Source: Camelus dromedarius (taxonomy: Eukaryota). Taken from it: DNA of 64,000 bases. The stretch is from contig NC_087436.1 in the NCBI RefSeq assembly GCF_036321535.1, forward strand, positions 77,936,001-78,000,000. The letters are read 5' to 3'. Position 1 is the stretch's first letter; the number at the start of each line of letters is the position of its first letter. Below the pieces are notes generated by a model, which was not told where the DNA came from, searched no databases, and worked only from the letters and a program-made list of their open reading frames with translations. The translations under genes were made by a program, and so were the position numbers. Shown here one piece after another: positions 1 through 18,039 of the stretch.

Positions 1-194
1 TCTACACTTTAAAAAATGCTTTTTTAGGGAAGAAGTAGAGGAATGTACAGTGGAGGATTCAGCTAGTGAGCAAAAAGCAGCAAAATATAAGGGGGAAATG
101 TATATAATGTGTGTAATATGTACATAACATATGTATATAATGTATATATTAGGGTATAGGGGAAAAGCTATTCAAATAACGAAGTACTAGTCTC

Positions 195-226
195 TGTGTG
201 TATGTGTGTGTGCGTGTGTGTGTGTG
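195..226. repeat. Imperfect (TG)n microsatellite
   Basis: tgtgtgtatgtgtgtgtgcgtgtgtgtgtgtg. Confidence 0.9.
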
Positions 227-794
227 AGTCTGAGAGAGACAGCAGGAAGATGCAGGCATGTGACCTTTTAAACGTTTGCTGCTACCATTTGGTCCCATTT
301 GAGAAACCAAGCTCCGTGTTACTAGGCATGCTTCCTTACCGAATCATATATTGCTAAATAAGTACTTATTCTTTTTAATAACTTCAAATGCCAGTGACAG
401 TAATTACCTGGCAAATAAAGATAGAATAAAGATCAGTCCTTTAAGGAAGAGAAAATTGCATTCTACCCACTACAGTCATTTGTCATGTAATTCAATCATT
501 AGTTTCATTTCAGCTTTCTTGCAGGCAAGTCCTAATAAACCACTTCATTTTGGGCAAAACTCTAGAGGGGAAACATATTAAGCCATATTAGGCGGAACTG
601 TCCTACCAAATTCAGAACCCATCTCAATTATACACAGGGCACACCTGGATCCACTGACTGCCAAAAAAAAAAAAATCCCTAAAGTCCCAGGCAAGAAGCA
701 ACAAGTCCCAACCCAAGCTCACACTCCTTCCCACGGAGGGAGATAATTTTTTCAGTAGAGGAAAATTTTTTTTTCCTATTTCCTAACTGATTAG

Positions 795-1060
795 TTTGTT
801 CACTCATTCGTTCATTCATTCATTCAAATACACCTAAGTGCCTATTAAATGCCAGGCACTGGGCTAGGAGCTAAGGATGCTGCGTGAACAAAAGAGGCAC
901 AGCAGGGAGTCTAGTGGGGAAAACAAGCCATAAAGAAAGCAAGCAATGACTAATCACAGAGGGCTATGAAGGTAACAGTGGTGACGGCCAATAATAGGGG
1001 TGGGCAATGATCGTGGCTGGGGTGGTGAGGGAAGGTCTCTCTGAGGACAGACACTTAAGC
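795..1060 (-). mobile_element. L2 LINE 3' fragment
   Basis: (cattcatt)n tail followed by ...tgccaggcactgggctagg..., the typical reverse-complemented L2 3' end. Confidence 0.75.
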
Positions 1061-2862
1061 ATGTGATAGAAGCAAGAACTGAGGGAAAAAGCATCCATCA
1101 CAAAAGTTTAGAACTGAAAGGGGCATTACTACAGGGAAGTTACCTCTATGATTTAAGAAATGAAGAAGGGGCAGGGAATTTAGGAGACTCACCAAAGCAC
1201 TCAGATCAATCAGCCAAGTGTGGACCCAACTCCAAATACTGGATATAAGTAGCTGAAGGAACATCTCACTGGGAAACCCAACCTGATCAAGGCAGGTGAC
1301 AACTCTCCACTCAAGCCTCAGGTGAACCAGCTTCTTGGTTAGACCTGGCTCATCTTCTCATCTCTTTCCACACTCAAAACCATCTGAAAACCTCAAGGTT
1401 TATCAAGGATTTGTTATTAACACAGGAGGGCTGATAAGAAGCCGAGGCACAAGGCTGTCTGGTGCCCTGGCCTGGTTCCACCCAATTCCTGAGTAGCTTG
1501 ATCCTGTTAAAAGGATCAGATGCAATCTGGTCAACACAGGTAGAAATGACCCCCTCATGGGCTCCCATGACAGGAACAAAAAGCCATCCATTTGGCATTT
1601 TATCTGAAAAAGATTCTTAAGGTGCTCCTCTGGGGAAGAACCAAGTCACTATTTCTACCTTTTAAAAAGGCAATAGAGGGGAGGTCAGTTAACTGCCATA
1701 CCAAGTTAAGTTGTAATTAATTGTACCTAAATGTTTCTTAACTGAAATGAAACAATGACTGAGACACGGCTCAACCTTCACACGAGAAAAAGTCCTTATG
1801 ATGCCACTAATCTTTTGAGCAGCTTTTCATAAACTTAGGTCACTAAGCCAGCGCACACCCTGCCAAGCAAACCAACAGCTCACCCTGTGAAGATAAAATT
1901 TACTTACAAGACTATGATGCTTAACTTTTGCCTTTGTGAGTGAAGGACCTACCAATTCCTACCTGGTAGAACCTGTTATGCGCAAACTAGCAAAACGATT
2001 AGAACAGTTGTAACTTGCAAAAGGACTCAGGACCACTCATTCAGCCTTAAAGAAGCAACGGCTGCCTGGAGCACCAGCGTTCAATGTAATGTCATAGGGG
2101 AACTGTAAAAGGACGCAAGTGCAGATTTTTCAAGTACTAATCTTGTATAATTTTAGTATGATTTTTTTTTAAGTCAGAGAAAGTCTATTAAAATGGACTC
2201 ATGAGAAGCAGACAAAATAGGCAGAATGTCTTGTTACATGATCTTTATAGCCCAGCTCTGAAAGAATGATTTCTCCAGGAGGGTCGTTCATAATGCAAAA
2301 TGTATTTTAAGACAATGAAACAAGACATCACTGCCATTGCCAAGTGCTTTATCTTTTTCTACGTGAACATGTTATGTCTGTGCCTCAGAAACGTGTTCCC
2401 AGGAGCTCGCCAGCAACACAGAAACTACAAAGACATCCCTGCCCAACAAGCCTCAGCACAGCACACCAGCCCTCCAGGCCTGCTTCAAAGAGGAGAGCTT
2501 TGAATTTGTCAGAGCTGGTTAGTGCTTATCAAAGGCTCAAGTGAGAGAAGAGATATTTATGAAAGATTATCTAACAGCCTTACTTTCCATCTCCTCCTAG
2601 TCTAGCTGCGAGCCTTGAATCGACTTCTGGCCACAAGACTTGGAACCTTTTTTCTTTGTCTTCTCCACTCCCAAAGAATTAGCTTTGCTAATTTATACTT
2701 TAATCTTATGGCTTCAGTTTTGTTTTGTTTTGTTTTATCAAGGAACATTTGTTATAAACACTATACAGAGCACTTTTTCATGATCCTATTCACAAAGTCC
2801 TTGTCAGAAAGCTTTTTAAAATTTCATTTAATTAATGCCATGAAGAATTAGTGTGCTTTTTC

Positions 2863-2985
2863 GGGGGGGGGGTGATTAGGTTTATTTATTTTAATCATTT
2901 TTATTTTAATGGCAGTATTGGGGATTGAACCCATGACCTCATGCATGCTAAGCATGCGCTCTACCACTTGAGCTATACCCTCCCC
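2863..2985 (-). mobile_element. tRNA-Ala-derived SINE, camelid Vic-1 type
   Basis: Minus strand reads ggggagggtatagctcaagtggtagagcgcatgcttagcatgcatgaggtcatgggttcaatcccc (A and B boxes, AGC anticodon), then an AT-rich tail ending aaacctaatcacccccc. Confidence 0.85.
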
Positions 2986-3557
2986 ACCCTTTTTTCTTTT
3001 CTGACAGTGAAAATTATATAACCAATTGTATTTCCCTTTTATCTGGAGCTTACAGTCAAATCACAGCAATCTTGTCCTACTGTGCTGGTTCTCAATATTA
3101 GCATATTTGTTTTCTCTCTTCCATGGAATAAACTATTTCTGATTTATTAATCTATTACTTATTACCTGTTAATATATAAATGTTTTTTTACATGTACTAG
3201 TGTTTACATCTACTGGTGTGATATTTATTATCTAACTTGGGTCAAACCTTCTTGGAAGGAAGAAAGGGATAAGTAAAATAAAATGAAAACACACTTGCAA
3301 CATGAATCCTGTGCATGAATTGACATGACCACACCCCCGAATTAATCACATAGAACTCAAGATCACATCCCTTTGAAGTGGGATTCCATCATCATCTGCC
3401 TTTGACACACGAAGCAGACCAATATGCTATGAAGAGGACTTGCCCAAAGGCAAAACAGAAAAGACACAGTGGAGATTCTGATGCAGAATTTAGTACCACT
3501 TCCCACCAAGACCCTGCCTGGAAATCTGAGTTGTTGTACTCAATTCAGGTTACCAAC

Positions 3558-3695
3558 CTCCTCGCCACTGGCTATTCGGTGAGCCAGATCTTTTAAGTTT
3601 CTCATCATTCTTTCATCCCGAAAATCATAAGGAAATGTTTCTGTCCATTCTGTCAGGAGTTGAAGAATCTTGGGTGCAATTTTTCTTATCTGGTT
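3558..3695 (-). CDS. RASGEF1B: RASGEF1B exon 4 (codons 101-146); the gene continues beyond the left edge of the window
   Basis: Translated by hand (not in the ORF track): NQIRKIAPKILQLLTEWTETFPYDFRDERMMRNLKDLAHRIASGEE. Acceptor cttcctag|AAC; donor GAG|gttggt; 138 nt, phase 0. Confidence 0.96.
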
Positions 3696-4054
3696 CTAGG
3701 AAGAAAAAGCAAATATAATTCAGCGATAGCTCTCAAATAAATAACTGCGAACAGCGCCATTGATAAATTTCCAGTGCAAAGTCTTTGGGGTTAAAGAAGC
3801 TCTAGTCCCCCTCCCCCAAGTCAATGCCAATTGCTACCAACTAAAGGCAGGACCTAGGGATCTTCCGTGGCACTAGATTTATATTGTGTTCTTTACACCA
3901 TCCCCAGTTCCCTTTGCATAGCCGGGATACCATTCCTGGACCTCAGCCTGGGGATAAGCTATGGTTAGTGGAGGAAACCAACTTCACAAAATCTAAGCCA
4001 AAAAGTTACCAAACCTAACAGAAAAAAACTGTAAAGTTCAAAACACACCATTAC

Positions 4055-4177
4055 CTTATCACCATTAGGATCACTTAGTCTCTGGTGCTCAACACATAAG
4101 TGGCAAACTTTGGCCATTAGCTCATATGGATGCATAAATAACCGAGAACTGAGTAGGAAGGTAAATATGTACGTTCT
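4055..4177 (-). CDS. RASGEF1B: RASGEF1B exon 3 (codons 60-100, REM/RasGEF_N domain)
   Basis: RTYIFTFLLSSRLFMHPYELMAKVCHLCVEHQRLSDPNGDK. Acceptor tttgccacag|AGA after a polypyrimidine tract; donor AAG|gtaatg; 123 nt, in frame with exon 2. Confidence 0.97.
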
Positions 4178-5870
4178 CTGTGGCAAAAGAAAACAAAAAG
4201 TCATTGTTTCACTCTCTCTGAAACTAGTATCTTTCCTATAAATTTTACATCTTGTTTCATTAAGCTCTCTTAAAGTTAAAACGCTGTTTCAAAAGTGATG
4301 CTTACTAGTAGTAAAACAACCCGAGACGGAGTTTTCCTTTACCTTCAGATGTATCATTCCCCTTGAGCTATACTAAAAATAACAGAGGTACAGGGTAAGT
4401 TTCACTACTGAATTATTCACAGCACATTTTTACGTCTATCCTCTGGGAGCCAGGATACCAGGACACATAACTTGGTCTAGTAAAAAAGAATGAAGTTCAG
4501 CCTGAGGAGATAAATCTAACTTAAATACACCACCCGTACAGAATCTCTTTCTGTGTCCAAATATTATGGTAACCCAGTGGAAGCCAAAAAAACAAAAAAA
4601 CAAAAGAACACTCAACCCACACCAACTCAAGAATTCTCCAGTGTGTCCATTATAACACACTGGAGCATTTGTGCGCTTGTGTCAGAATGTTCAAAGACTG
4701 GCTTTCAAATAATCTACTGACTTGCTCAAAGGCTAAGCAATTTGATAAAACACAATAACACCCTATATACTTTTCTTTAACCACATTGTCTCCCAAGAAG
4801 CCAGTAATGAAGTAGTGCTTATTTGTTATAATAGTTTCAGACTCCCCAATAAAAAGAAAAATTCCACGGGGTTTTCTCCCCCTTCGGCGCCTTCTGTAGC
4901 TCATAAACACTTACAGGGCTGAACAAGGGATGCCTTTTACTTTTGATTACAAGTTTTCCCTGTGTGGCAACATATTTGAAAACGCTATGTAACAAATCAC
5001 ATACAGAGAGATAACTCAGTAAGAAACACTATGGTGAGCTACAGAGTCAAGCACAAACGATCCTTTCCACACCAAGGTCATTATTACATTTATAAAAACG
5101 TGTGTATCTTGTGTCTGGCTATTTTCATGAAATCTTTATCAACAACCAGCTTTTGAGTAACTAGGGCAGCTGCAGCACAAGGAAAGGGGATAAAACTATC
5201 ACTTGCCCCAGAAATAAAACACCTGGCTTTGATGGCTGATGCTGGGAGTGAGATCATGTGTAAATTATGCAACATTTCAAATTCCAATTTTCTCCTTTCC
5301 AGTCTCTTGGAATTGCTATAAAGGCTGAGAAAATGTAAATGAATTTCCTAAATTAGAAAATATTATCTATACAAATGTTGGTTATCAAAGTAAAACAAAA
5401 CATAAGCAAGCAATGTTGTCTGATGTCCAATCAATAAAGAATTGCATCTTGAATATTGTTTCTGCTCTCTTTTTTATGAAGTTTCCCTGTGTAACTTCCC
5501 TTTTCTCAGCACAGTGATAGTCTTGGAAACAAAAAAGGGACTAAACATTCAAGCAGCATCCAATGTTCTCCAGTGTTTCTATTTAAGGACCAAGGTGTAT
5601 GTATGAATCAAACCTTACAGAAACTTCACTGAGATGGTATCTGACGGCCTACAATGTGATATCAACCCTTAAAAAAAAAAAACTGATACGCAGATATATC
5701 ACATCCAAGCTCAGTCTGATCTCAAAGCACTCAATAATCAAGATGCAATATTTCATTAGGAAATCCTGAGAAGCCTAGACATAACTCCGTAGTATCTAGG
5801 GTCCCTGTCTACTCTGTTGGAATCTCTACTGGACACCAAGGATGTGTTTCAGAGGCACGTGGATACCTAC

Positions 5871-6047
5871 ATCCGGATAGTAATCCACGTTGGGTACTAA
5901 GTGCTGGATGAGAGCTTCCAGGGATCCGGAGAGGAGGTTGTTGTCATGGTAACACAACCCTCCACAGCTGTCCTCTGCAGACTGATAGAGGTTTCTGTTG
6001 TAGCCACTACTGTCAAACATTGCTGAAAAGGGAGGAGTCTGAGGCAT
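5871..6047 (-). CDS. RASGEF1B: RASGEF1B exon 2, coding part (codons 1-59). The full exon is 5871-6053 and includes 6 nt of 5'UTR (GAAAGC)
   Basis: Translation MPQTPPFSAMFDSSGYNRNLYQSAEDSCGGLCYHDNNLLSGSLEALIQHLVPNVDYYPD matches the RasGEF1B N-terminus as I recall it. Acceptor ttttag|GAAAGCATG at 6054/6053; donor GAT|gtaggt at 5871/5870; 177 coding nt, phase 0. Confidence 0.97.
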
Positions 6048-8104
6048 GCTTTCCTAAAATGAATTTAAAAAGAAAAAACAAAACATAGTGTCAGTAATAT
6101 GCAGTCCAAAAGAAAAGTAAACTTTAACAGGCATTAGGCTTCCAAAGTAATGAAACAGGCAATTTTAGAAACAGGTTAAGTGCTGAGACAATATCAGAAC
6201 CCAGCAAGAAGCAAACTGCTCTCTGAATAGCGTATTTTTGAGTACTAATCTCATCCAATCAAATACCATAAAATACCTGGATCAAAAGATCCAATCTGCC
6301 CCTAGATTCAAGTCTCTGGCTGCCATGTGCAGATATCACTCCTTCACATTCGCTTGTGGAGGGGAACTCAGCTTCAATCTGCTTTATCACACTGAGTCAA
6401 GCACTATCCTAAGGTGGAAAGGCGTACGCCTTCAGAGTTGGTTGGGAAGAGTAACACAACACTTAAGAAATAGAGAACTAGCACTGGGGCATAGGAGGAG
6501 AAAACCAAAACAGAAGATGAAAAAATGAAATGATAAAAGAGGCCTCAAATTAAAGGACATAGTCTGTGTCTGTGTGTGTGTGTTTACAGATGTATGTACA
6601 TACCAAGAGATTTAATGCTGACTTTCCAGCTTTCACTGGAAGATCAGATACTACTGATTCACCCCTTGTGTCAAATTCTTTTGGGGTTGGAGGGCTCTAT
6701 AAAGCCTCGGTTCTCAGTAAACACACGGGCCAAGAAAGCACCTGATCTGGGGAACAAGAGCACTGTGCCGTCCTCTCCATCTGTGCGCTCTGCAGCTCAC
6801 AAAGCCCTTGTGAGAGGGCGCTCAGTGGGGGCCAGGCGCTATTAAATTATTACTTGGATTCCTAGGGACAGAGCTCCCGGCCAGAAAACAAGACTCCCGG
6901 TTTCTGGCAGCCTGTCTGGACAATGGAGGCTTTCAGGAGCTGACGAGACTGAGGGTTTCAGAGGCAAACAATGAGGGGAAGCCCAAATCCAGGTCTCCAG
7001 GACTGACAGGGATGGGGTGCATGGAGGCTGCAGGAGGACACAACCTGGGCTGATCCTTCTTTTCGAGATGCTGAAAGATACTTGCACCCGAATGGGGGAG
7101 GGGGGTGGAGTCTGAGAGACACACGCATCACTCCTAGCGCATCTGTTCCAGCTCCAGCTAACAGGGGTCACAGCATTGTCACTATATGTGTGTGTGCCAG
7201 GGCAGGGGGTGGCCAGGGGTGGGGTGTTGGAAAAAACAACGTCCACTATAGGGCCAGCCTGGCAGATGAAAATGGCCTTTAGGGAAAGGAACACCAAGAA
7301 AGAGAAACAGGAAAGAAGCTTCAGCATTTTCTGCTCTATCCCATCCACAAAATCATGCTAAGGGAGTTTGTAAAATGATCCATGAAAAAATAGCCACATT
7401 TGGGAAGACAGAGAGGATGGAGACTCACTTTGTCTGGGGAGACATGTCACTACCAGAGCCATCATTGCCATCCCTCTCACTTGGGCAGGACATGATCACA
7501 GCCTAAGGATCAGGAGCTACGGGATGTAAACGTTAACACACATGCCCCGCACTTGGTAAGACCTCACACGTAGAAATTACGGTGAAATAAATAACTCAAT
7601 GTTAATATTTTATAAGGCAACGGACAAAGTTATGTTTCCACCCTCTTCCAATTGCCAGTTTTCTGTGAGTATGATGCACGTGCAGTACAATCTCCATAAA
7701 TGTGTTGTCCTTGGTGGGAAGAGAAACAGGAGGCCATGTACCGTTCCCCTGAGATGCTCAAAACTGAGACTCGGGACCTGAGATGAGAAACAACTAAAAG
7801 CCACTTCTGATGGCCTGGAAGGAACCTTCTGTCTGGATGTGGTTACCCGTCTCTGGCTTAAAAAGGTTTAGATGGTTAAAACCACACAGCATCCCTGGTA
7901 TCCAGGACGACAAGTAGAACTCACTCTGTCATGCTCTTTCGAGTTTTTTTTTTTTTTTTTTTTTCTGCCAAGAACTATGAATTTTCCTTGATTTCTCCAC
8001 TTCTTTATTGCTCCTGAAACTATCCCAATAAAGTGCTTTGAGGAGATGATTGGCCAAGTTTGGGAATTTCAGAAAAATCAGAAAATGTTAAAAGAAATAA
8101 TCTG

Positions 8105-8300
8105 GTTCAAGACGGAAAATAGATTGCATTTCACTTTCTAACTGCAATCAATCAGAAGTGGCTGCCCAGAGGCAAGGATGAGCGGGAAGGACTGAAAGGC
8201 TGTACTGGGGGGCGGAATGTGTCCTGAGGGATTAGCGGTGACTGCAAAACAGTCTATGGGAGAAGCCAAGCCCGAAGCATCATGGTAGTCGGGTCCACTG
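8105..8300 (+). mobile_element. Degraded hAT-Charlie (Charlie4z-like) fossil
   Basis: Partial similarity to the recalled consensus (aaatag...tttca...agtggctgcc...gattagcg). Confidence 0.4.
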
Positions 8301-8303
8301 CAC

Positions 8304-8323
8304 TCTGCACATCGATGTGCAGA
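8304..8323. repeat. Perfect 20-bp palindrome TCTGCACATCGATGTGCAGA
   Basis: Self-complementary 10+10 bp with no spacer. Confidence 0.95.
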
Positions 8324-9812
8324 CTGAGACCCTGAGACCTAGGAGGTGAGGGAAGTGACAAGGCAAGGATCACACAGCCATTTGGCTATAGCACCAGGTG
8401 AGCCCAGTGGAGCTCCCTAGAATAGTGTACTCCTGCTGCCTTTGGTTGATTGACAGGAAGCACTAACACACAAAATAGTCACAAGTCACTCAGGCTTCCC
8501 TTTCAAAGAATCAGCACCAAACGCCATCAAGCATTTGTGCTTTGTAACTATTTACTCCCATAAAGTGGACAAGAACTCAGATTTAATGAAGTCCTAATCT
8601 GGGGCTTAACAGCTGTGAAAACATCAGAAAGTCGTTTACTTTACTCCCCACCCCAAGTATGTTTGTCATCTGGAAAATTACTTCCAATTTTGCTCCCTCC
8701 TTCCATAATTCTAAATGATAACACCACCACCAATTTTCTTCATAGCAAAGTTAGAGTATTTTTAGAGCAATGACAAAAAGCTTTTGTATTGTTCCCTGGA
8801 AATCTGTCACAAGATTTCTTTGAGGAGGTACAAAATATCAACACAGTAAAAAAAACCCAAAACACAAAACACCTCTCCAACCAGGCACCAAAAGAAAATA
8901 CTGCCAATAGCAACAGACACCAAACGGAGATGAGTTAGCTGGGGTTACAGTTTATTATACTTAAAAATTACATTTAGGAAGAGTATTTATCACAGATCGT
9001 TTTCTGTCTCTTCTAATTGGCCCAAAGTTCTGTTGCTAATCGCTGACTGATTTAACCATGAACCACCCTTGATTGTTGAACTTGTATATTGTGGCAACCA
9101 ACTGCTGAGATTTATGTCACTCCCAGAGACCCCAGCCCCTTACTTGTGCAAAATGTGGTCCTGTCTTCCTACCTTGCCATATACTTTCAACTCCTTAGGC
9201 TGTCTCCCCCTTCCTTAGTCGTACGTTCTTCTACTGTGGAATCCTGGGTGCTGGAAAAGGTCCCTCTTTTCCACAGTCCTTCATTCCTCTGATTCCCCCG
9301 AGAATGCGCCCCAAGAGACACCGAGATGCGCGGGGCGGAAGGCTCTGAGAATGTCAGCACTCCCGTTGCGTAAGGCTCACTGCCTGCGGATGCCTTTCTG
9401 GATACTCCATCTGCCTTGTTTGGCAGGGATTCTCACTGTGTTTTGACTGCATAAGCTGAGGTTCAGAACAACTGAACAGCCCGGCTGTGGTTGAACACTG
9501 GGTAAAGGACAAACAAGGCAGGGTCTCAAACCTAGGTCTTCAGATTCTGGGCTCAAATTTTATTACACTACATCAAGTTATCCTGCAAATGGTCTTCTTT
9601 GAACTTCTAATGTTTAGCCATAAAATGAAAAGCCTGTCAGTCTGTCCCAAATTGTAGGCTATTAGGATAATTTATAGGTTTTACACGTTCTGCGTAAATC
9701 CTTGCTCCAAAGACGTATTCATGCCATTAATTACTCTTATTAAAAAGCAACACTGTCGACAAAAGTATTTAGACTACTGACCTTTGCAATCAAAACCTAG
9801 TCCTCTCTAGGC

Positions 9813-9990
9813 AGAGATTTCAGAGATTCTAATAGACACTTCTTTATATTTTAGTATCTTTGAAATTGGGATGCACTTCAATAGTCAAGTGATAAGAAAA
9901 TCTGTTTAGTTGACAGTGGTTTTTTTAGCAATATATGAAATAAAAGAGCATCTTACAATGGATGATACCTTAGATGCAAGGAAATACAGT
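9813..9990. mobile_element. MER104-like (TcMar-Tc2) DNA transposon fossil
   Basis: tgaaattgggatgcac ... gcatcttacaatggatg ... cttagatgcaaggaaatacagt resembles the MER104 consensus. Confidence 0.6.
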
Positions 9991-11553
9991 GATACTTGCC
10001 TGTGTGTGCTTCATAGATTTCCAGTCAAAAAAGTCTGATGAGACAAATGATCAAAAGAAAGATCATGGACCACAGTTTTCATAACTAATTTCTGGACAAT
10101 CTCTAACAAGTGATTTTCTGGAAAGATCAACTGCCTTGTGTAATAGATGCGCTTGATAAACACGGAGAAAGGTCAGCAGAACAGTACAGAGAGTACTGTT
10201 TGTGAAGTGTATTTTTAAATATCTAAGAAGATAAACAGTGTAGATTTTTTTTCTCAAGTATCTTTCCTCCTATTACCCACATCGAGAACCACTGTTGGCT
10301 CAGTATTACTCAAATTTGATGTCCAGGACTTTAGTTCTATTTGCTTCAGTTCTGGAATTAAAAAGTGAGTCTCAGAAGATTAAATATTGGCTTAGTTCTT
10401 GTTTAAGAAGATAAACTCATACAATTTCCAAGTACTGGACATGAGGGTCCAGAGACACTTTCACCCCTGGGTGCTACCGACTCCAGGAATCATCTGCTAA
10501 CACTTTCCCCAGCGGAAGACGGACTGAGGGAGAGGCTGCTCCTACCCCACAGCTTCCACTTATTTTTTAATCTCAACATAGTTCTGATTTCTTCTTTTCT
10601 ACAGCAAACCTCTTTACAGCTCTCACAATTACTATTTTCTGTCTCTTGGGTTCTGGAAACTCTCAATTTACCTTTCTCTACCCTTTCCAACATAATCTCA
10701 AAACCAACTTCTCCACTATCTGCCATCCTTCCTCAGCACAAATTTTGCCCAACCCAAGGGCCCTATCTGTGGGGACCTGTTAACCAAAACTCTGGTTTAA
10801 GAAAAGCTGACTTTCCCCCCAAATCAGCATGTGTGACTGCATTAAATAAAGTACCGGCATTAATATATTGTTAAGTCAAACTTCAAAGTGGTTAACTCCT
10901 TTGGGAAAAGTGAGATTTCTATGAGACACTTGAAAAAGCTCCTGACTTTATTCAAATCACTATCAATAAGATAAGGCAGAGGACAGGTTAATCTCACAAG
11001 CAATTCTCACCTTGCAAAGTTTCCTCTGGAAGTCAGTTCCTGGAAACTCAGAATATATTCTATTTGGCCAGTGGCTCTGAACTTTTAGGGAGATCACCAA
11101 CTTCTCCACACACTGCCCCCCGAGAAATATATCAACAAGTCTGCATACACTTTCAGGGAGTTCAGACCCCAGATTAGGAAGTACTGTGTTGTACATGTGC
11201 TGGCCTGTCCAGAACCTAGACAGTGTCTATCTCCTTATCCTCACAGAAGTAGAACAAGATGGTTCTGAAGGGAAACTTGGTCTAACACATTCAAGACTGG
11301 CTGCTCAGAAATCAAGGAATACTTGTATCTCCTAGTAGTACCAATCTAATGGATTTAAAGAGAATTAAAAAGACACTTCTTTTAGTTTGGGTAGAGAGAT
11401 TTAAATAGGCCTTTTTTCCTCCTAAGTTGAGGCAGCCCTGTGGGAAAGGGAGGATGTAAGGAGACACTGGGAAACAGATTTTGGTTTTAAAACAATGAAC
11501 CATGCAAATAGAAAGCTCTGAGCCACCCAAATTAGCATACAGATTATAGGTTC

Positions 11554-11580
11554 TTCTGGGAAATTCCCCAAGAGGAAGTA
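11554..11580. promoter_or_regulatory. Candidate intronic immune enhancer core: GAS + kB + PU.1/ETS
   Basis: TTCTGGGAA (11554-11562) overlaps GGGAAATTCCCC (11558-11569), which abuts AAGAGGAAGT (11570-11579). Confidence 0.5.
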
Positions 11581-13710
11581 AAAGATATATCCAACCCATG
11601 TATGCAAGACGAATGTTCTTTCTTAAAATCAATTCAGTAAGCTGAAAAGTTGGTTGACAGACAAGATACCTTACAGGGGCAGCTAATTCAGTCGCAAAGA
11701 TATATCATGTTCTTCCAAGGACCCTGAAAAAGTTCCGCGTGACATTGATCAGCAGCAAGGAAGCAAGCGCTGGGTGATTTAAGGGATGAATGGATTTGAA
11801 AGGCATGCCTAATGGTTTCAGACCAACTAAAGCACCAGATGAAAAGCTGCCTTTTTCTAAACAGCAGATTGTGTTTGAATCAGCGACTGCTTTTGCACAA
11901 TGTTATTTACGATGAGGCAGGTGCACCAGGCCAAGGTGGTTTCAGGTGACAATTCAAATTGGGAAAGAGGGTCGGGAAAAGCTGGGTGTGGGAAGTAAAT
12001 CAAAAGCCATCCTTCAACATCTGTTTGAGGAGCTTTGTAAATCTCTACCAGAATGTCAAGTCAGCACTTCCTTTACACTCAGGAAAATGAGATAGCATAG
12101 ACAGGAATCCAAGGAAAAAAAATATAAAGTTTTTTTTTCAATCCCTATTTCATCATAGAGTGTTACAGTGAAATATTTAATAAACTCAATGCTTTTATAT
12201 TAATTACTATCATTTAGTTCCTGTTCAAATGCTGGGCATGTGTCCCAACTTAAAAAAAAAAAAAAAAGAACCACTGAGGTAGAGGAAGTCTTCCCTATCG
12301 CAATTGAACTTTGAAAGCATGTTTATTTAGTGAGGAGAGGCTTAATTTAATACCCTGGAATGACTGGTTCCCAAATTCCCATATTGATTCCAAAGGAACT
12401 TTGCACTTTGGTGAGATGCATCCTCTCTGCCTTTTTTCATTTGAGGTTCCAGAGATGGGAACGAGAAAGAGTCCACATATTTCAGCTGTACTCCAGCAGC
12501 AATCACAAGTACTTTTAGCCTCCTTTTGGCGCTGCGGGATCTCAGCATACAAGGACTGACTGTACGCTGAGAGAGTGTTTATCTAACTATGAATTTGAGT
12601 CAGGGCGAAAGTAAAAGTCAAGTTTCTGACACTATCTATAAAACATGCTTATTTTCAGCTTGAAAACATCTTGAAGATTATCTTCTCATTTCTTTCCAGC
12701 AGCATCTCTGGAAACTAGAAATGCTACACCTCAGCTAACCTCCTTGAAAAAAAGAGGTATTGTGTTGAGATTACAAACAATACAGAGTGGACAACTCAGA
12801 ATCAACTCATTTCTTTGGCTTGTGAACAAAAAGTAACTCCCAGATAAGGACGTTCTTTGGAACTGAGCCCCAAATGCTTAGTAGATTTTACAGTCAAGGG
12901 GGAAAAAACCCAGTATTTTTGAGGAAGGAAGGTCCTGTTTCTCTCTACAGTGATGAAATGGGATATTTCCTGATTTGTTACAGGTTCCCACATAAAAAAT
13001 GAACTTGCATTTTGCTTGATTTGTTCTAGATGCTACTTAAAAATCTTTACTAATTCCTAATTGATGGAGGAAGAAGATTCTGACTCAAATAATTACTATC
13101 TTTGGTTCCCTTGGGAGAAAAACAAAGCTACAATTTGTCCTCTCTTGTCTTGGGAATATCTTGTCAGCAGTTTATTAAAACATAAAACTATTCAGTACAT
13201 GGCAACTCAGAATGGGCCAGGACAGTCATTTAAAGCTTTTCTATGAGATAAATCTTGACTAGTTTTTTTTTGGTGGGAACTGATCACAGAATATGCTGAC
13301 ATTCTTCATGCATTGTTTTTAATCATCTACAATTTCCATGCAGTACCTGAACTTCACAGTAGATGGCTCCATATTCCTTGTCTTTGAAAAGGTTGGCACT
13401 TTCTAGCAGTAACAGTAGGTGTTGGTTTAGAAAAGTAAAAGAAGGACACTTGAGAGTTCTGGGGGTGAAATTTGAGAAATCAGTATTTGTGATCATGGTA
13501 AATTACTGAACTTAGGAAAGTGGCATTGCTCATGCTGATCAGTTGAAAACATACAAAGCCGGTTTTATTTCCTGTATCTTTGGTGCCATTCTATGATGAG
13601 AATTAATTGTCATTTTCCCAGAGGAATAAAAGTGATCTTCTGGATAATCAAAATCATCATTATCTAATTAAGTGCTGAACTTCTGGGGATATTGGAAATG
13701 TTCCTTTTCT

Positions 13711-13863
13711 GCATTGTTCAATACAGCCGCCACTCACCACACGCAACTATTGAGCACTTAAAATGTGACTAGGGCCCTTTTTTTAATTTAATTAACTTTA
13801 AGTTCATATATCCCCATGTGGTTATTTACTGAACAGCACTGGCTACCATTCTGAACAGCACAG
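13711..13863. mobile_element. MER3-like hAT-Charlie MITE
   Basis: ttgttcaatacagccgccact...tattgagcacttaaaatgtgactag ... tggctaccattctgaacagcacag. Confidence 0.7.
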
Positions 13864-16800
13864 ATATAGTTAGTTGAATCATTCATACATAACAGATCTT
13901 AAGCCAAATTATAGAATATCCAATGGGGAGCATCCTTTACTAAAGGGTTTATGTTCACCTCAGCAGGAAAAATGACCTGATACTTAGTGAGGACATTTAG
14001 TAAGCAAGTAGAATTTTCTACTTACATTTTATTATGGAACATAGTTAATGTGATAATTTTATTTTGGGGTTGCAAGTTCTTGAAAAAATACACATAGCCA
14101 CCTCCTCTATTCTTCCTCTTTGAAGGATACTCGCAGTCTATAAAGTGCTTTCCTTCCTTACAAGACTAATTTGTTCTTTCCCTGTGTTAAACTAATTTTT
14201 ATACCAGGGCTTCCTAATAAAATTTGAATCAATTGAATGATTTCTAGATGCAGACATACTATGAAATGAAATAGTAAATACACCAATCTAAGAGAAAAAT
14301 GGTCAAAAGGCTGGTTTAAAAAATGACAGAATAGTAACACTGACTTCAAAGATCAAACTATTTTTCCTGACTCCCTTCTTGATAATCAGCTTTTAAAATA
14401 CACTCATAGGAAAAAAAAAAAAAGAAAAGCAAAACCCAGCTCAAGAAAATAATAAAGCTCTGTATAATTTTAATGAATAAAAAGAAATATCACTCTCCTC
14501 TCTTCATTTCCACACACCCAGAAAGTAGCTGAACATCTAACTGTAGACCATTACTTCATGGGTACAAATGAATGCAGTGATAGCACAGCAAAATAAACCA
14601 GTTAACACATAAATCATCCAGTTTGACACCTCATCAATTTCACAGCCATTGCCAGTATAGTGAGGGAGTAAGTGACTTGTCAGGGCTCCAGACTGGCCAG
14701 AATCCTAGTTTCTCTATTCCCAAGGCAGAAATGTGCCCAGCACTAGACTACATCTCTTGTTTTAGGAAAATTAAGGGTTGCACAAATCTGATTTTTGTAG
14801 ATTTAACTGGAAAACCAAAATGGACAACTATAGTTCTTGAAAAGTGAAAGGGAGATAACACCTGAATTCAACCACTAAAGACAAAAATCCCCTCAATCTT
14901 CAGGATTTTCAACAGCCCAATTTGTCTCTCTAAAACCTCACAAAATGTTATAATGGCCTTTTCACTTACTATTTGTAGCATCAGAAACAAGGCTTTAAAC
15001 CCCTGCTTCAGGGACCCTAGGTTCTTCTCCTAAGTAAGGGAGAACACCCTCATTTCCCCATCTCCCGCCCAAGCAGATACTCTCTTTGGGGTCACCCAAA
15101 TGCTCCTCTGAAGTCCACTTCTTCCAGGTCACATTTGGAGACTGATAAAGTTGATCCCACCACTTCCTCTGCCATACTGGGTACCTCACCAACAAAGTCA
15201 ACCTAGCTTCGCCTCATCAATTTTCTCGCCATTTCTTTTTTCCCTAGATAGGTATTATTCAACTGATTTTTTCTGGACTATTGTAGTTTATTAGCCAGTA
15301 GTTAACACTGTAAGAATGTAATGTTAGTAGTAATATAAGAAATGTGTATTATTATGATAAATAGATACTTAGGAATATTTAATAATATATGCCTAAGAAT
15401 GAATTAAATTTAAAAAGATAATAAATATAAATGTTTTATGATGATTTTCTATTCCAAAAGACAGTATCATCCCACGTATTAGAATAAATATCTGGTGGAG
15501 TATATAAAATGGAGCAAGACTGAAAATGCACCATGGGAGAAATAAACTCTAAGCATTTAACACCTCATTAGACCACTGGAAAGTACAAAGCTTAGTAGCC
15601 AGAAATGTTGCCACCTCTAGGAAAACAAAGGATTGACCAACATGTCCTGGAAGAATGTCAACAAGAAACTTGCTAATCAGTAGCTGATCTTCACTTTGCC
15701 AGAAAATCTGCTTGAAAGGCAGATTAACTAATAATTAATTAATAGGGCACTGCTTGTGAACCTTGATTTCTGTCAAAAGTGCCCTAGGTCCTCCTTGGCT
15801 CAACCACTGTCCCCTGAAAAATAACACAGCCATTAATGATCTGCTCCACTTTTTGTTATGAACATCTTAACAGCCAAGATTTTTTTATTACTTCCTTTGA
15901 GGAATCGATTTCTACATTTGCTCTAAACCTCACCTGACTACTTGTTTTCCTCCCAAATCTCCAATCAGGCATATACTCTGGTTAACTGTAACCTCCTTGC
16001 TTCCCATAGGCTTATCACGACGGTCTGTGTTTTAAATTAAGACACAGCCATCACATGCTAGGCTCCGGCTACTGTTTGGGAGGAAAGAATAATTATTCAC
16101 CCCATCTGAGTCTGACTGTACTAGACATCATTCAAGAGAGCAAAACCCTGATCCCTGAACTCTTCCCCTTTATGCACCCGGTTCAGGGACCCTCCCTTGG
16201 CCATGAGACATCATCCAGGGCTAAATATAGATCTACGCACACCAGCAGTTCTGACCGTCGTCACATGGTGCTGCTGACGAAGGACTCCTTGGAGACGCGT
16301 TCGACCCAAACACACATACACAAATCGGTGTGCATATTCATCTATACACACACCATACCCACTCAATTCATCGGTGAAGACGGACACATCTACATTTAGG
16401 AGAAAGTCGCTCTCTAGAAATCTCTTTCTGCTATTTACTACACTTGTGCCGCCCTCTGCACCGTCAGAGGACTTAGCTACGTTGCTCCTTGCTCTTGTCT
16501 GAATTGCGCCGATCAGGTGGGGTAAGATGGGAATCAATATTCCAGTGGTACGCGTTCAGTCAGACAGACACACGTACACTCCAGCCCCCCTGTTCCGCCC
16601 CTTTTCTCTTGTACAGCACTGAAATTGTTTCCACGGTTCCCCTAGAAAGAGGCGCCTTCCTCCCGCTAGCAGCCCGGGGGGCTCCCAAGTACCCCCAGTT
16701 CACGTTATCATCGCCTGGCCAGGTGACCCGAGGCGACTCACCTGAGCTCAGGCAAGAGCAAGACGACATGTAGTGTCCCCAAGTTTGCCAGCTGAACGGA

Positions 16801-17436
16801 GGAATGAAACAATTTCACTTCGTCAGTGGCGAACACATAACTTCTGTTCCCTTGTCTCTTCCCAAGAGTTAGACCTTAGATTATAAGGCTCCGACACCAA
16901 AAATAAACAGTTCCCCCCACCCACCCACTCACGAAAACTAGCCAAAAAGTAGGAAACAACCTAGCTGAGCACAGGAAGGGAGGAGAGGACGAAGAAAGGA
17001 TGAACGCTACTAGAACTCACACAAATCCTCAAAAACTACCAAGAGCTCGGAACAGAAAGCCTGGCTGCGGGACGAGGGTGAAAGAAGCAAGCCAAAACCC
17101 AAGCCTGTCCCCGCCCTGGCCCCAGTGGCTGGGCCCCGCACCTGTTGGCACCGGGTGCGCTCCCAGGGACACCCCCGACGCCCTCGGCGGCCAGGCAGGC
17201 GGACTCCTACGGTCCCCTGCTTTTGCGGGGGGCTTTGCACCAATCAGCGCTCGCTGGCCCTGGCTCTCCCGCCGCCTCCAGGGGCACCGGCAGCCGGGGC
17301 GCAGTCAGAGAGCTTGGCTCGCTCCGCGCCCAGCTCCCCGGTCCCCGGAGAGTGCACAGCGCGCAGGAGGGTCGTGCGTTCCCGCTGCCGGGCTCGGGTT
17401 TCTCCTGGGAGAACTGATGACCGGAGAACAACCCAC

Positions 17437-17590
17437 CTGCAGATGGACCCCGGGTCCTCGAACTTCCCGGCTGTTTGCCGCGCGCCCACCAACGCAACCA
17501 AAGGACAGGGAGCGAAAGCGCGCGGGAAGAAGGAAAAAGATTCCGCCCAACCAGTCGGATGCCTTGTTTATACTGAAACTACAGCCGCAG
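17437..17590 (-). other. RASGEF1B: RASGEF1B non-coding exon 1 (5'UTR); 3' end exact, 5' end/TSS approximate
   Basis: Strong donor CAG|gtgggt at 17437/17436 inside the CpG island. Joined to exon 2 it gives ...CTGCAG|GAAAGCATG. No upstream ATG in this segment. Implied intron 1 is 6054-17436 (11,383 nt). Confidence 0.78.
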
Positions 17591-17700
17591 CCGCCGCGCA
17601 CACCCCCTTCCTCCCAGCGCCCGCCTCCCGCCGCCAGCCCCGCCCCGCACGACCAATCACGGCGCAGCTTACCGCCCACTCTGCCACCGCCCCCGGCGCC
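17474..17700 (-). promoter_or_regulatory. Core promoter motifs: TATAAA (minus, 17567-17572), CCAAT (17653-17657), GC boxes (~17638-17647, ~17687-17693), E2F-type sites TTTGCCGC (17474-17481) and GCGGGAA (17522-17528)
   Basis: Motifs read directly from the sequence. Function is inferred from position; the TATAAA may lie inside the 5'UTR rather than upstream of the TSS. Confidence 0.55.
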
Positions 17701-18039
17701 CGGGTCCCGTCCATGCGTCCCTGGGGGCCGGCGACTCCAGTGGCGCGGTTGCCCGGGTGCCCTCCTACGCTGCGGAGGCCGGCGGCCGCCGCGCAGCCGT
17801 GTTTACCAGCGCCGGTTGGGCTCGCTCCGCCGCCGTGCGCTTCCTCCTGGGTGCACCTGCCGGGGGCTGTTTGTGCAGTCATGTGTATGCCTGTGTGTGT
17901 TCATTTACCTGTGTGCTACCTGTAAATACCGGCCCGACTTGTTATACAGTATCTATTAACATAATTATGAGCTAGAGGTTACTGTCCGTGTAACTTTCAG
18001 AAGAGAGCTGAGAGAAACCACAAGAACATTCCCTCAGCG

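Follow-up and report, generated by a model that had tools for sequence, protein, structure and literature searches.

Exons 2 to 4 of RASGEF1B in the dromedary (Camelus dromedarius) lie on the minus strand of a 64,000-nucleotide (nt) stretch of contig NC_087436.1 (positions 77,936,001 to 78,000,000), which is called the window here. The same three exons form a circular RNA (circRNA), circRasGEF1B, that is already known in mouse and human, as the original prediction had stated (PMC10638313, PMC8026322, PMC6487579; statements on cited papers refer throughout to parts of their texts and supplements). When joined as a circle in the dromedary, they carry a frame that contains the start codon of the gene and has no stop, and this frame had been taken as a pointer to rolling-circle translation. 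We find that the stop-free frame is no more than the gene architecture predicts. It is explained by introns of phase 0 and by a 6-nt leader that is itself coding in the gene model of a conserved long isoform. Most likely, the frame is a by-product of the phase-0 exon block and of the long isoform, which keeps the leader. If the circle forms as it does in mouse and human, it would act as RNA or be near neutral.

The exons and the two elements at the start of exon 2 are, in window coordinates:

6053-5871, minus strand: RASGEF1B exon 2, 183 nt, phase 0/0, AG/GT sites; its acceptor is the putative back-splice acceptor.
4177-4055, minus strand: RASGEF1B exon 3, 123 nt, phase 0/0, AG/GT sites.
3695-3558, minus strand: RASGEF1B exon 4, 138 nt, phase 0/0, AG/GT sites; its donor is the putative back-splice donor.
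6048..6053, minus strand: the 6-nt leader, which is 5' untranslated region (UTR) in the proximal mRNA and codes for Glu-Ser in the gene model of the long isoform.
6045..6047, minus strand: the start AUG annotated for the short isoform, with A at -3 and C at +4.

The identity of the gene was confirmed by exon 2, which occurs once in the genome and matches RASGEF1B proteins of vertebrates (many mammalian ones, among the matches listed, are 98% identical). Exons 5-13 lie outside the window and translate without stops. Recomputing the exon arithmetic on the minus strand gave the sum that had been claimed: 183+123+138 = 444 nt, which is 148 codons. The introns inside the block are 1,693 and 359 nt long. 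The start AUG is nt 7 of the circle and one of six in-frame AUGs, and its frame contains 0 stops, compared with 9 and 12 in the other two. The circle therefore has the sequence properties of a rolling-circle open reading frame (rcORF), namely a length that is a multiple of 3, no stop and a start codon. It also has the defining property of an AUG circRNA, an annotated start codon within the circle exons. DRACH sites number 11 per 444 nt as a raw motif count without a control. A Pfam scan of an orthologue places RasGEF_N (REM) at residues 38-136, inside the unit, and CDC25 at residues 209-403, outside it, in agreement with the claim that the unit holds the REM region and not the catalytic domain. 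The host gene has both domains, and the unit alone falls outside the two-domain RasGEF1 family.

Such a frame is expected from the intron phases. With the upstream exons included, 13 of the 16 introns are phase 0. Between the distal first exon and exon 7 there is no intron of another phase, and a circle made from any run of these exons is therefore in frame. Each of the seven combinations of exons 2, 3 and 4 that were tested gives a stop-free circle. Within exons 2-13, 46 of 78 contiguous ranges are phase-matched, and the same is true of nine of the twelve beginning at exon 2. The only bases of the circle outside the short-isoform coding sequence (CDS) are the two codons of the leader, and stop-free six-mers follow YAG at 1,696 of 1,897 sites in the window beyond exon 2. 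In 9 of 149 homologous protein models, 41 amino acids (aa) are missing at exon 3, which is consistent with in-frame skipping. A further mark of rcORFs, a frame conserved beyond the needs of the linear gene, was not found, since the phase-0 introns, the paralogues and the long isoform predict the frame fully. The A at -3 is present as claimed, but it lies inside exon 2, where the linear mRNA has the identical context, and it was rejected as circle-specific evidence.

The six leader bases had been described as UTR. This is correct for the mRNA from the proximal promoter, but in the distal-promoter gene model they are Glu-Ser codons. A genome search with the extension of the whale protein located the upstream exons as four collinear minus-strand matches, with one unrelated weak match on another contig. 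In the dromedary, these exons would be spliced into exon 2:

G000:C1 78408322-78408254, minus strand: first upstream coding exon, 69 nt, phase 0.
G000:C1 78305131-78305084, minus strand: second upstream coding exon, 48 nt, phase 0.
G000:C1 78231768-78231715, minus strand: third upstream coding exon, 54 nt, phase 0.
G000:C1 78056460-78056377, minus strand: fourth upstream coding exon, 84 nt, phase 0.

The four exons encode 85 aa, have canonical splice sites and no stops, and run in frame into the two leader codons. The predicted N-terminal extension of the long isoform is thus 87 aa (85 aa plus Glu-Ser). The first exon is associated with a CpG island (GC 0.77, CpG observed/expected (o/e) 1.0) and lies 466 kb upstream of exon 2.

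Matching gene models of the long isoform range from fish to mammals, and the first exon is conserved over that range. Identity to the 85-aa extension is 77/85 in blue whale, 66/85 in naked mole-rat, 36/56 in duck, 34/57 in sturgeon and 27/39 in eel. The alternative N-terminus, MAKFL, is found in eel, sturgeon, cavefish, gecko, duck and several mammals, and two residues then lead into MPQT. Among 177 homologous proteins, 105 have at least two residues before MPQT (ES 54, ER 35, EN 6, GK 3, DR 3, DK 2, RN 1, FF 1) and 62 contain upstream-exon motifs, 60 of these running on through two residues into MPQT; the counts are not independent, because the set holds many isoforms from few species and some models run into an intron. 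A homologue search with the 85 aa alone returned six proteins from 66 candidates, all from mammals, and missed the known fish and bird forms, so it tells little about range. Literature searches at title level on N-terminal isoforms of RASGEF1B found no paper describing the long isoform; automatic annotations do include it. An amphipathic membrane helix at its start was considered and rejected, as the hydrophobic moment of 0.41-0.48 is unremarkable (rank 86 of 549 windows).

The linear long isoform by itself predicts a 6-nt, stop-free leader, so conservation of the leader cannot show rolling-circle translation. The original prediction had proposed a cross-species check that the leader stays stop-free and a multiple of 3. 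The leader passes, but the linear isoform predicts the same result, and leader conservation was rejected as non-discriminating evidence for translation of the circle. The long isoform would also yield a tryptic peptide starting Glu-Ser-Met, as translation of the circle would. Such a peptide is ambiguous between the two in proteomics, and only peptides with exon 4 residues count for the circle.

Two paralogues on contigs C8 and C27, which we take to be RASGEF1A and RASGEF1C, have a similar layout. In both, the acceptor lies six bases before the MPQT start, giving a 6-nt leader, and the exon 2-4 blocks form stop-free circles of 462 and 444 nt. The leader and the stop-free exon 2-4 frame shared by both paralogues indicate that the layout predates the paralogue split. 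In the C8 paralogue, a six-codon coding exon whose donor is phase 0 lies 19 kb before exon 2 (G000:C8:16802760); it was located with a sequence motif. Six codons plus the leader fit the human RASGEF1A isoform that has a different first exon and is eight residues longer (PMC11429621). An alternative first exon of RASGEF1A likewise adds in-frame residues through the 6-nt leader, whereas the extension of RASGEF1B is 87 aa and is spread over four exons and about 466 kb.

In mouse macrophages, the circRNA arises by back-splicing of RASGEF1B exons 2 and 4 and is induced by lipopolysaccharide (LPS) (PMC10638313). It is cytoplasmic, and its knock-down is linked to lower ICAM-1 (PMC5612941). The circle is numbered to nt 444 and binds ZFP36 and Bcl-2 mRNA directly as RNA (PMC8026322). 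The human circle (hg19 chr4:82377804-82380668) is labelled an AUG circRNA in Table S2 of PMC6487579, where two datasets contain 266 and 24 reads across its junction, and a human circle end pair 138 nt apart in that supplement matches exon 4. No row for the mouse circle was among the matches listed from the same table. The gene and the exons are the same in the dromedary, where the circle is predicted from genomic sequence. The papers on circRasGEF1B that are covered here treat it as RNA, and an open reading frame (ORF) and internal ribosome entry site (IRES) or polysome data are unmentioned in the parts of its two primary papers that are covered here.

The exon 2-4 circle resembles two described classes. 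Like the AUG circRNAs of Stagsted et al. 2019 (PMC6487579), it has an annotated start codon, a long upstream intron and no flanking inverted repeat, and its human orthologue is so labelled. These circles are conserved and Alu-independent, and in ribosome profiling they show, as a class, no footprint phasing across junctions (PMC6487579). Only 8% of them have an infinite ORF, and unlike most, the RASGEF1B circle is among that 8%. If the long isoform is taken into account, exon 2 becomes an internal coding exon as well, which corresponds to the "ambiguous AUG" class of PMC6487579. The second class comprises rcORF circRNAs such as circPFAS, circPSAP and circABHD12 (Fan et al. 2022, PMC9242994), with which it shares a length divisible by 3, the lack of a stop and the host-gene frame; 14% of human circles have a stop-free rolling frame (PMC9242994). 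However, these three have junction peptides or vector validation, whereas RASGEF1B is not in that peptide table.

We propose that selection on the long isoform would keep the leader at six nt and stop-free. Judging from mouse and human, exon 4 would back-splice to exon 2 without inverted repeats, with long flanking introns helping, upon induction of the proximal promoter through Toll-like receptor (TLR)/NF-kB signaling. LPS induction of RASGEF1B is ascribed to the proximal promoter in the title of a cited reference. The circle would then work as RNA, for which ICAM-1 mRNA stability and a ZFP36/Bcl-2 mRNA scaffold have been reported, or would be near neutral. Rolling translation, if any, would occur incidentally, with a product that is probably degraded.

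Several points weigh against this account. A by-product origin would not prevent use of the frame. The evidence for the long isoform consists of automatic gene models and of the genome sequence, and the matches listed contain no long model from human or mouse. Rolling ORFs are present in about half of the peptide-supported circles, and initiation can be internal (PMC9242994). The human circle stands in row 5812 of the PMC6487579 table and, judging from that row, was probably outside the top 1,000 circles that were ribosome-profiled. The case for RNA-only functions is based on junction knock-down and two loss-of-function deletions, nt 244-302 (59 nt) and nt 311-444 (134 nt) (PMC8026322). These deletions leave 385 and 310 nt, neither of which is a multiple of 3, so the open frame is destroyed in both. 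This confound went unnoticed, and the two deletions do not separate RNA action from protein action. The likelihoods that we attach to the by-product account and to its alternatives overlap.

One alternative is that little or no exon 2-4 circle is made in the dromedary, the frame being only a paper construct in this species. We consider this unlikely, and it is compatible with the by-product account of the frame. It bears on the flanking introns, which are, in window coordinates:

6054..17436, minus strand: intron 1 of the proximal transcript, 11,383 nt.
1..3557, minus strand: the window part of intron 4, which is about 5.7 kb in full; exon 5 lies 2.2 kb past the window edge.
17437..17613, minus strand: the 3' portion of proximal exon 1, lying in a CpG island (GC 0.64-0.67, CpG o/e 0.75-0.99), with the donor after 17437.

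A search for inverted repeats between introns 1 and 4 gave nothing notable, the best opposite-strand matches being 18-19 nt (E 0.19-0.67), and intron pairing is unsupported as a route to the circle. The cut-off for a "long intron" of AUG circRNAs is 6.5 kb (PMC6487579); the upstream intron of 11.4 kb is above it and the downstream intron of about 5.7 kb is below it. The missing repeat and the length of intron 4 below the cut-off would both fit a circle that is hardly made. However, the circle is reported in mouse (PMC10638313) and in human, with the junction reads given above, and AUG circRNAs do not depend on Alu elements (PMC6487579).

We regard as quite improbable the view that the circle is rolling-translated from the AUG into tandem 148-aa REM units without the catalytic domain, serving as a dominant-negative or scaffold product after LPS. 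The open frame with its six AUGs speaks for it, as do the position of RasGEF_N wholly inside the unit with CDC25 outside, the cytoplasmic location and LPS induction of the mouse circle (PMC5612941) and the frame-breaking deletions of PMC8026322, which leave the two modes of action unseparated. Furthermore, endogenous circle sequences have been shown to undergo rolling translation when expressed from vectors (PMC9242994). However, all the cited sequence features are predicted by the linear gene, some rolling products are degraded by the proteasome (PMC9242994), and vector-based signals can arise from linear by-products (PMC7544230, PMC6487579). AUG circRNAs lack junction phasing as a class (PMC6487579), and the binding of ZFP36 and Bcl-2 mRNA is reported for the RNA itself (PMC8026322). 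RASGEF1B gave 0 matches in seven of the eight supplementary files of PMC9242994, including the junction-peptide table with its gene-name column, the place of the circle in that search set being not established. In the covered parts of the literature on RASGEF1B, circRNA and rolling circles (including PMC6376182), no ribosome or peptide evidence for the exon 2-4 circle was found. If rolling translation were nevertheless true, the view of a much-cited immune circRNA as "non-coding" would have to be revised.

In an extended form of this idea, the ancient phase-0 block would have been co-opted, so that TLR4 activation leads to REM-domain concatemers by rolling translation and the effects on ICAM-1 mRNA stability and on ZFP36/Bcl-2 come partly from protein. 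A reciprocal skipped mRNA from the distal promoter would encode a guanine nucleotide exchange factor (GEF) without REM. Such co-option is also quite improbable; if true, a single splicing event would separate the two domains of RASGEF1B.

It is very doubtful that the circle is merely the partner of exon 2-4 skipping, in which the last upstream exon joins exon 5, the lariat yields the circle and the skipped mRNA, encoding an N-terminally extended, REM-less CDC25 protein, is the protein-level output: the last upstream exon has a phase-0 donor and exon 5 a phase-0 acceptor, and a grey-seal model (P0121) makes this join in frame as the reciprocal of the circle, but the join occurs in only one of the 177 proteins, an automatic model, and LPS induction is reported for the proximal promoter, where skipping would remove the start codon.

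The by-product account makes the RASGEF1B circle a cautionary case, in which a conserved, stop-free AUG circle mimics selection for translation, although intron phase and an upstream coding isoform account for it. A side result is the 87-aa N-terminal extension of RASGEF1B, whose first exon has been conserved in lineages from fish to mammals.

For the RasGEF1 proteins, no solved structure was among 28 structure matches, which were distant GEFs only, and an AlphaFold model of the orthologue from a 30-sequence alignment was discarded (mean pLDDT 43.9, pTM 0.29). Read-through of the exon 4 donor is seen in 12 of 120 listed proteins (short models P0005, P0007-P0014, P0020, P0062 and P0081) and offers a way to make a REM-only protein from linear mRNA. 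In the dromedary genome, read-through into intron 4 (from window position 3558) meets a stop after five codons. The exon 5 acceptor (L008, G000:C1 about 77933836) has a single AG only, so a tandem acceptor cannot make here the extra Gln of many mammalian models. The big-headed turtle model P0001 contains exon 2 twice in tandem with a Glu-Ser leader between the copies, through either a duplication in the genome or an artefact of assembly or annotation.

At the proximal promoter, a pangolin gene model aligns to proximal exon 1 and then continues into exon 2. Window positions 17437-17800 (minus strand) are open for 364 nt in the CDS frame; no AUG lies in that frame, and the one AUG in another frame is at 17714. 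A non-AUG N-terminal extension may run through proximal exon 1, for which an open frame is a weak sign in so GC-rich a region.

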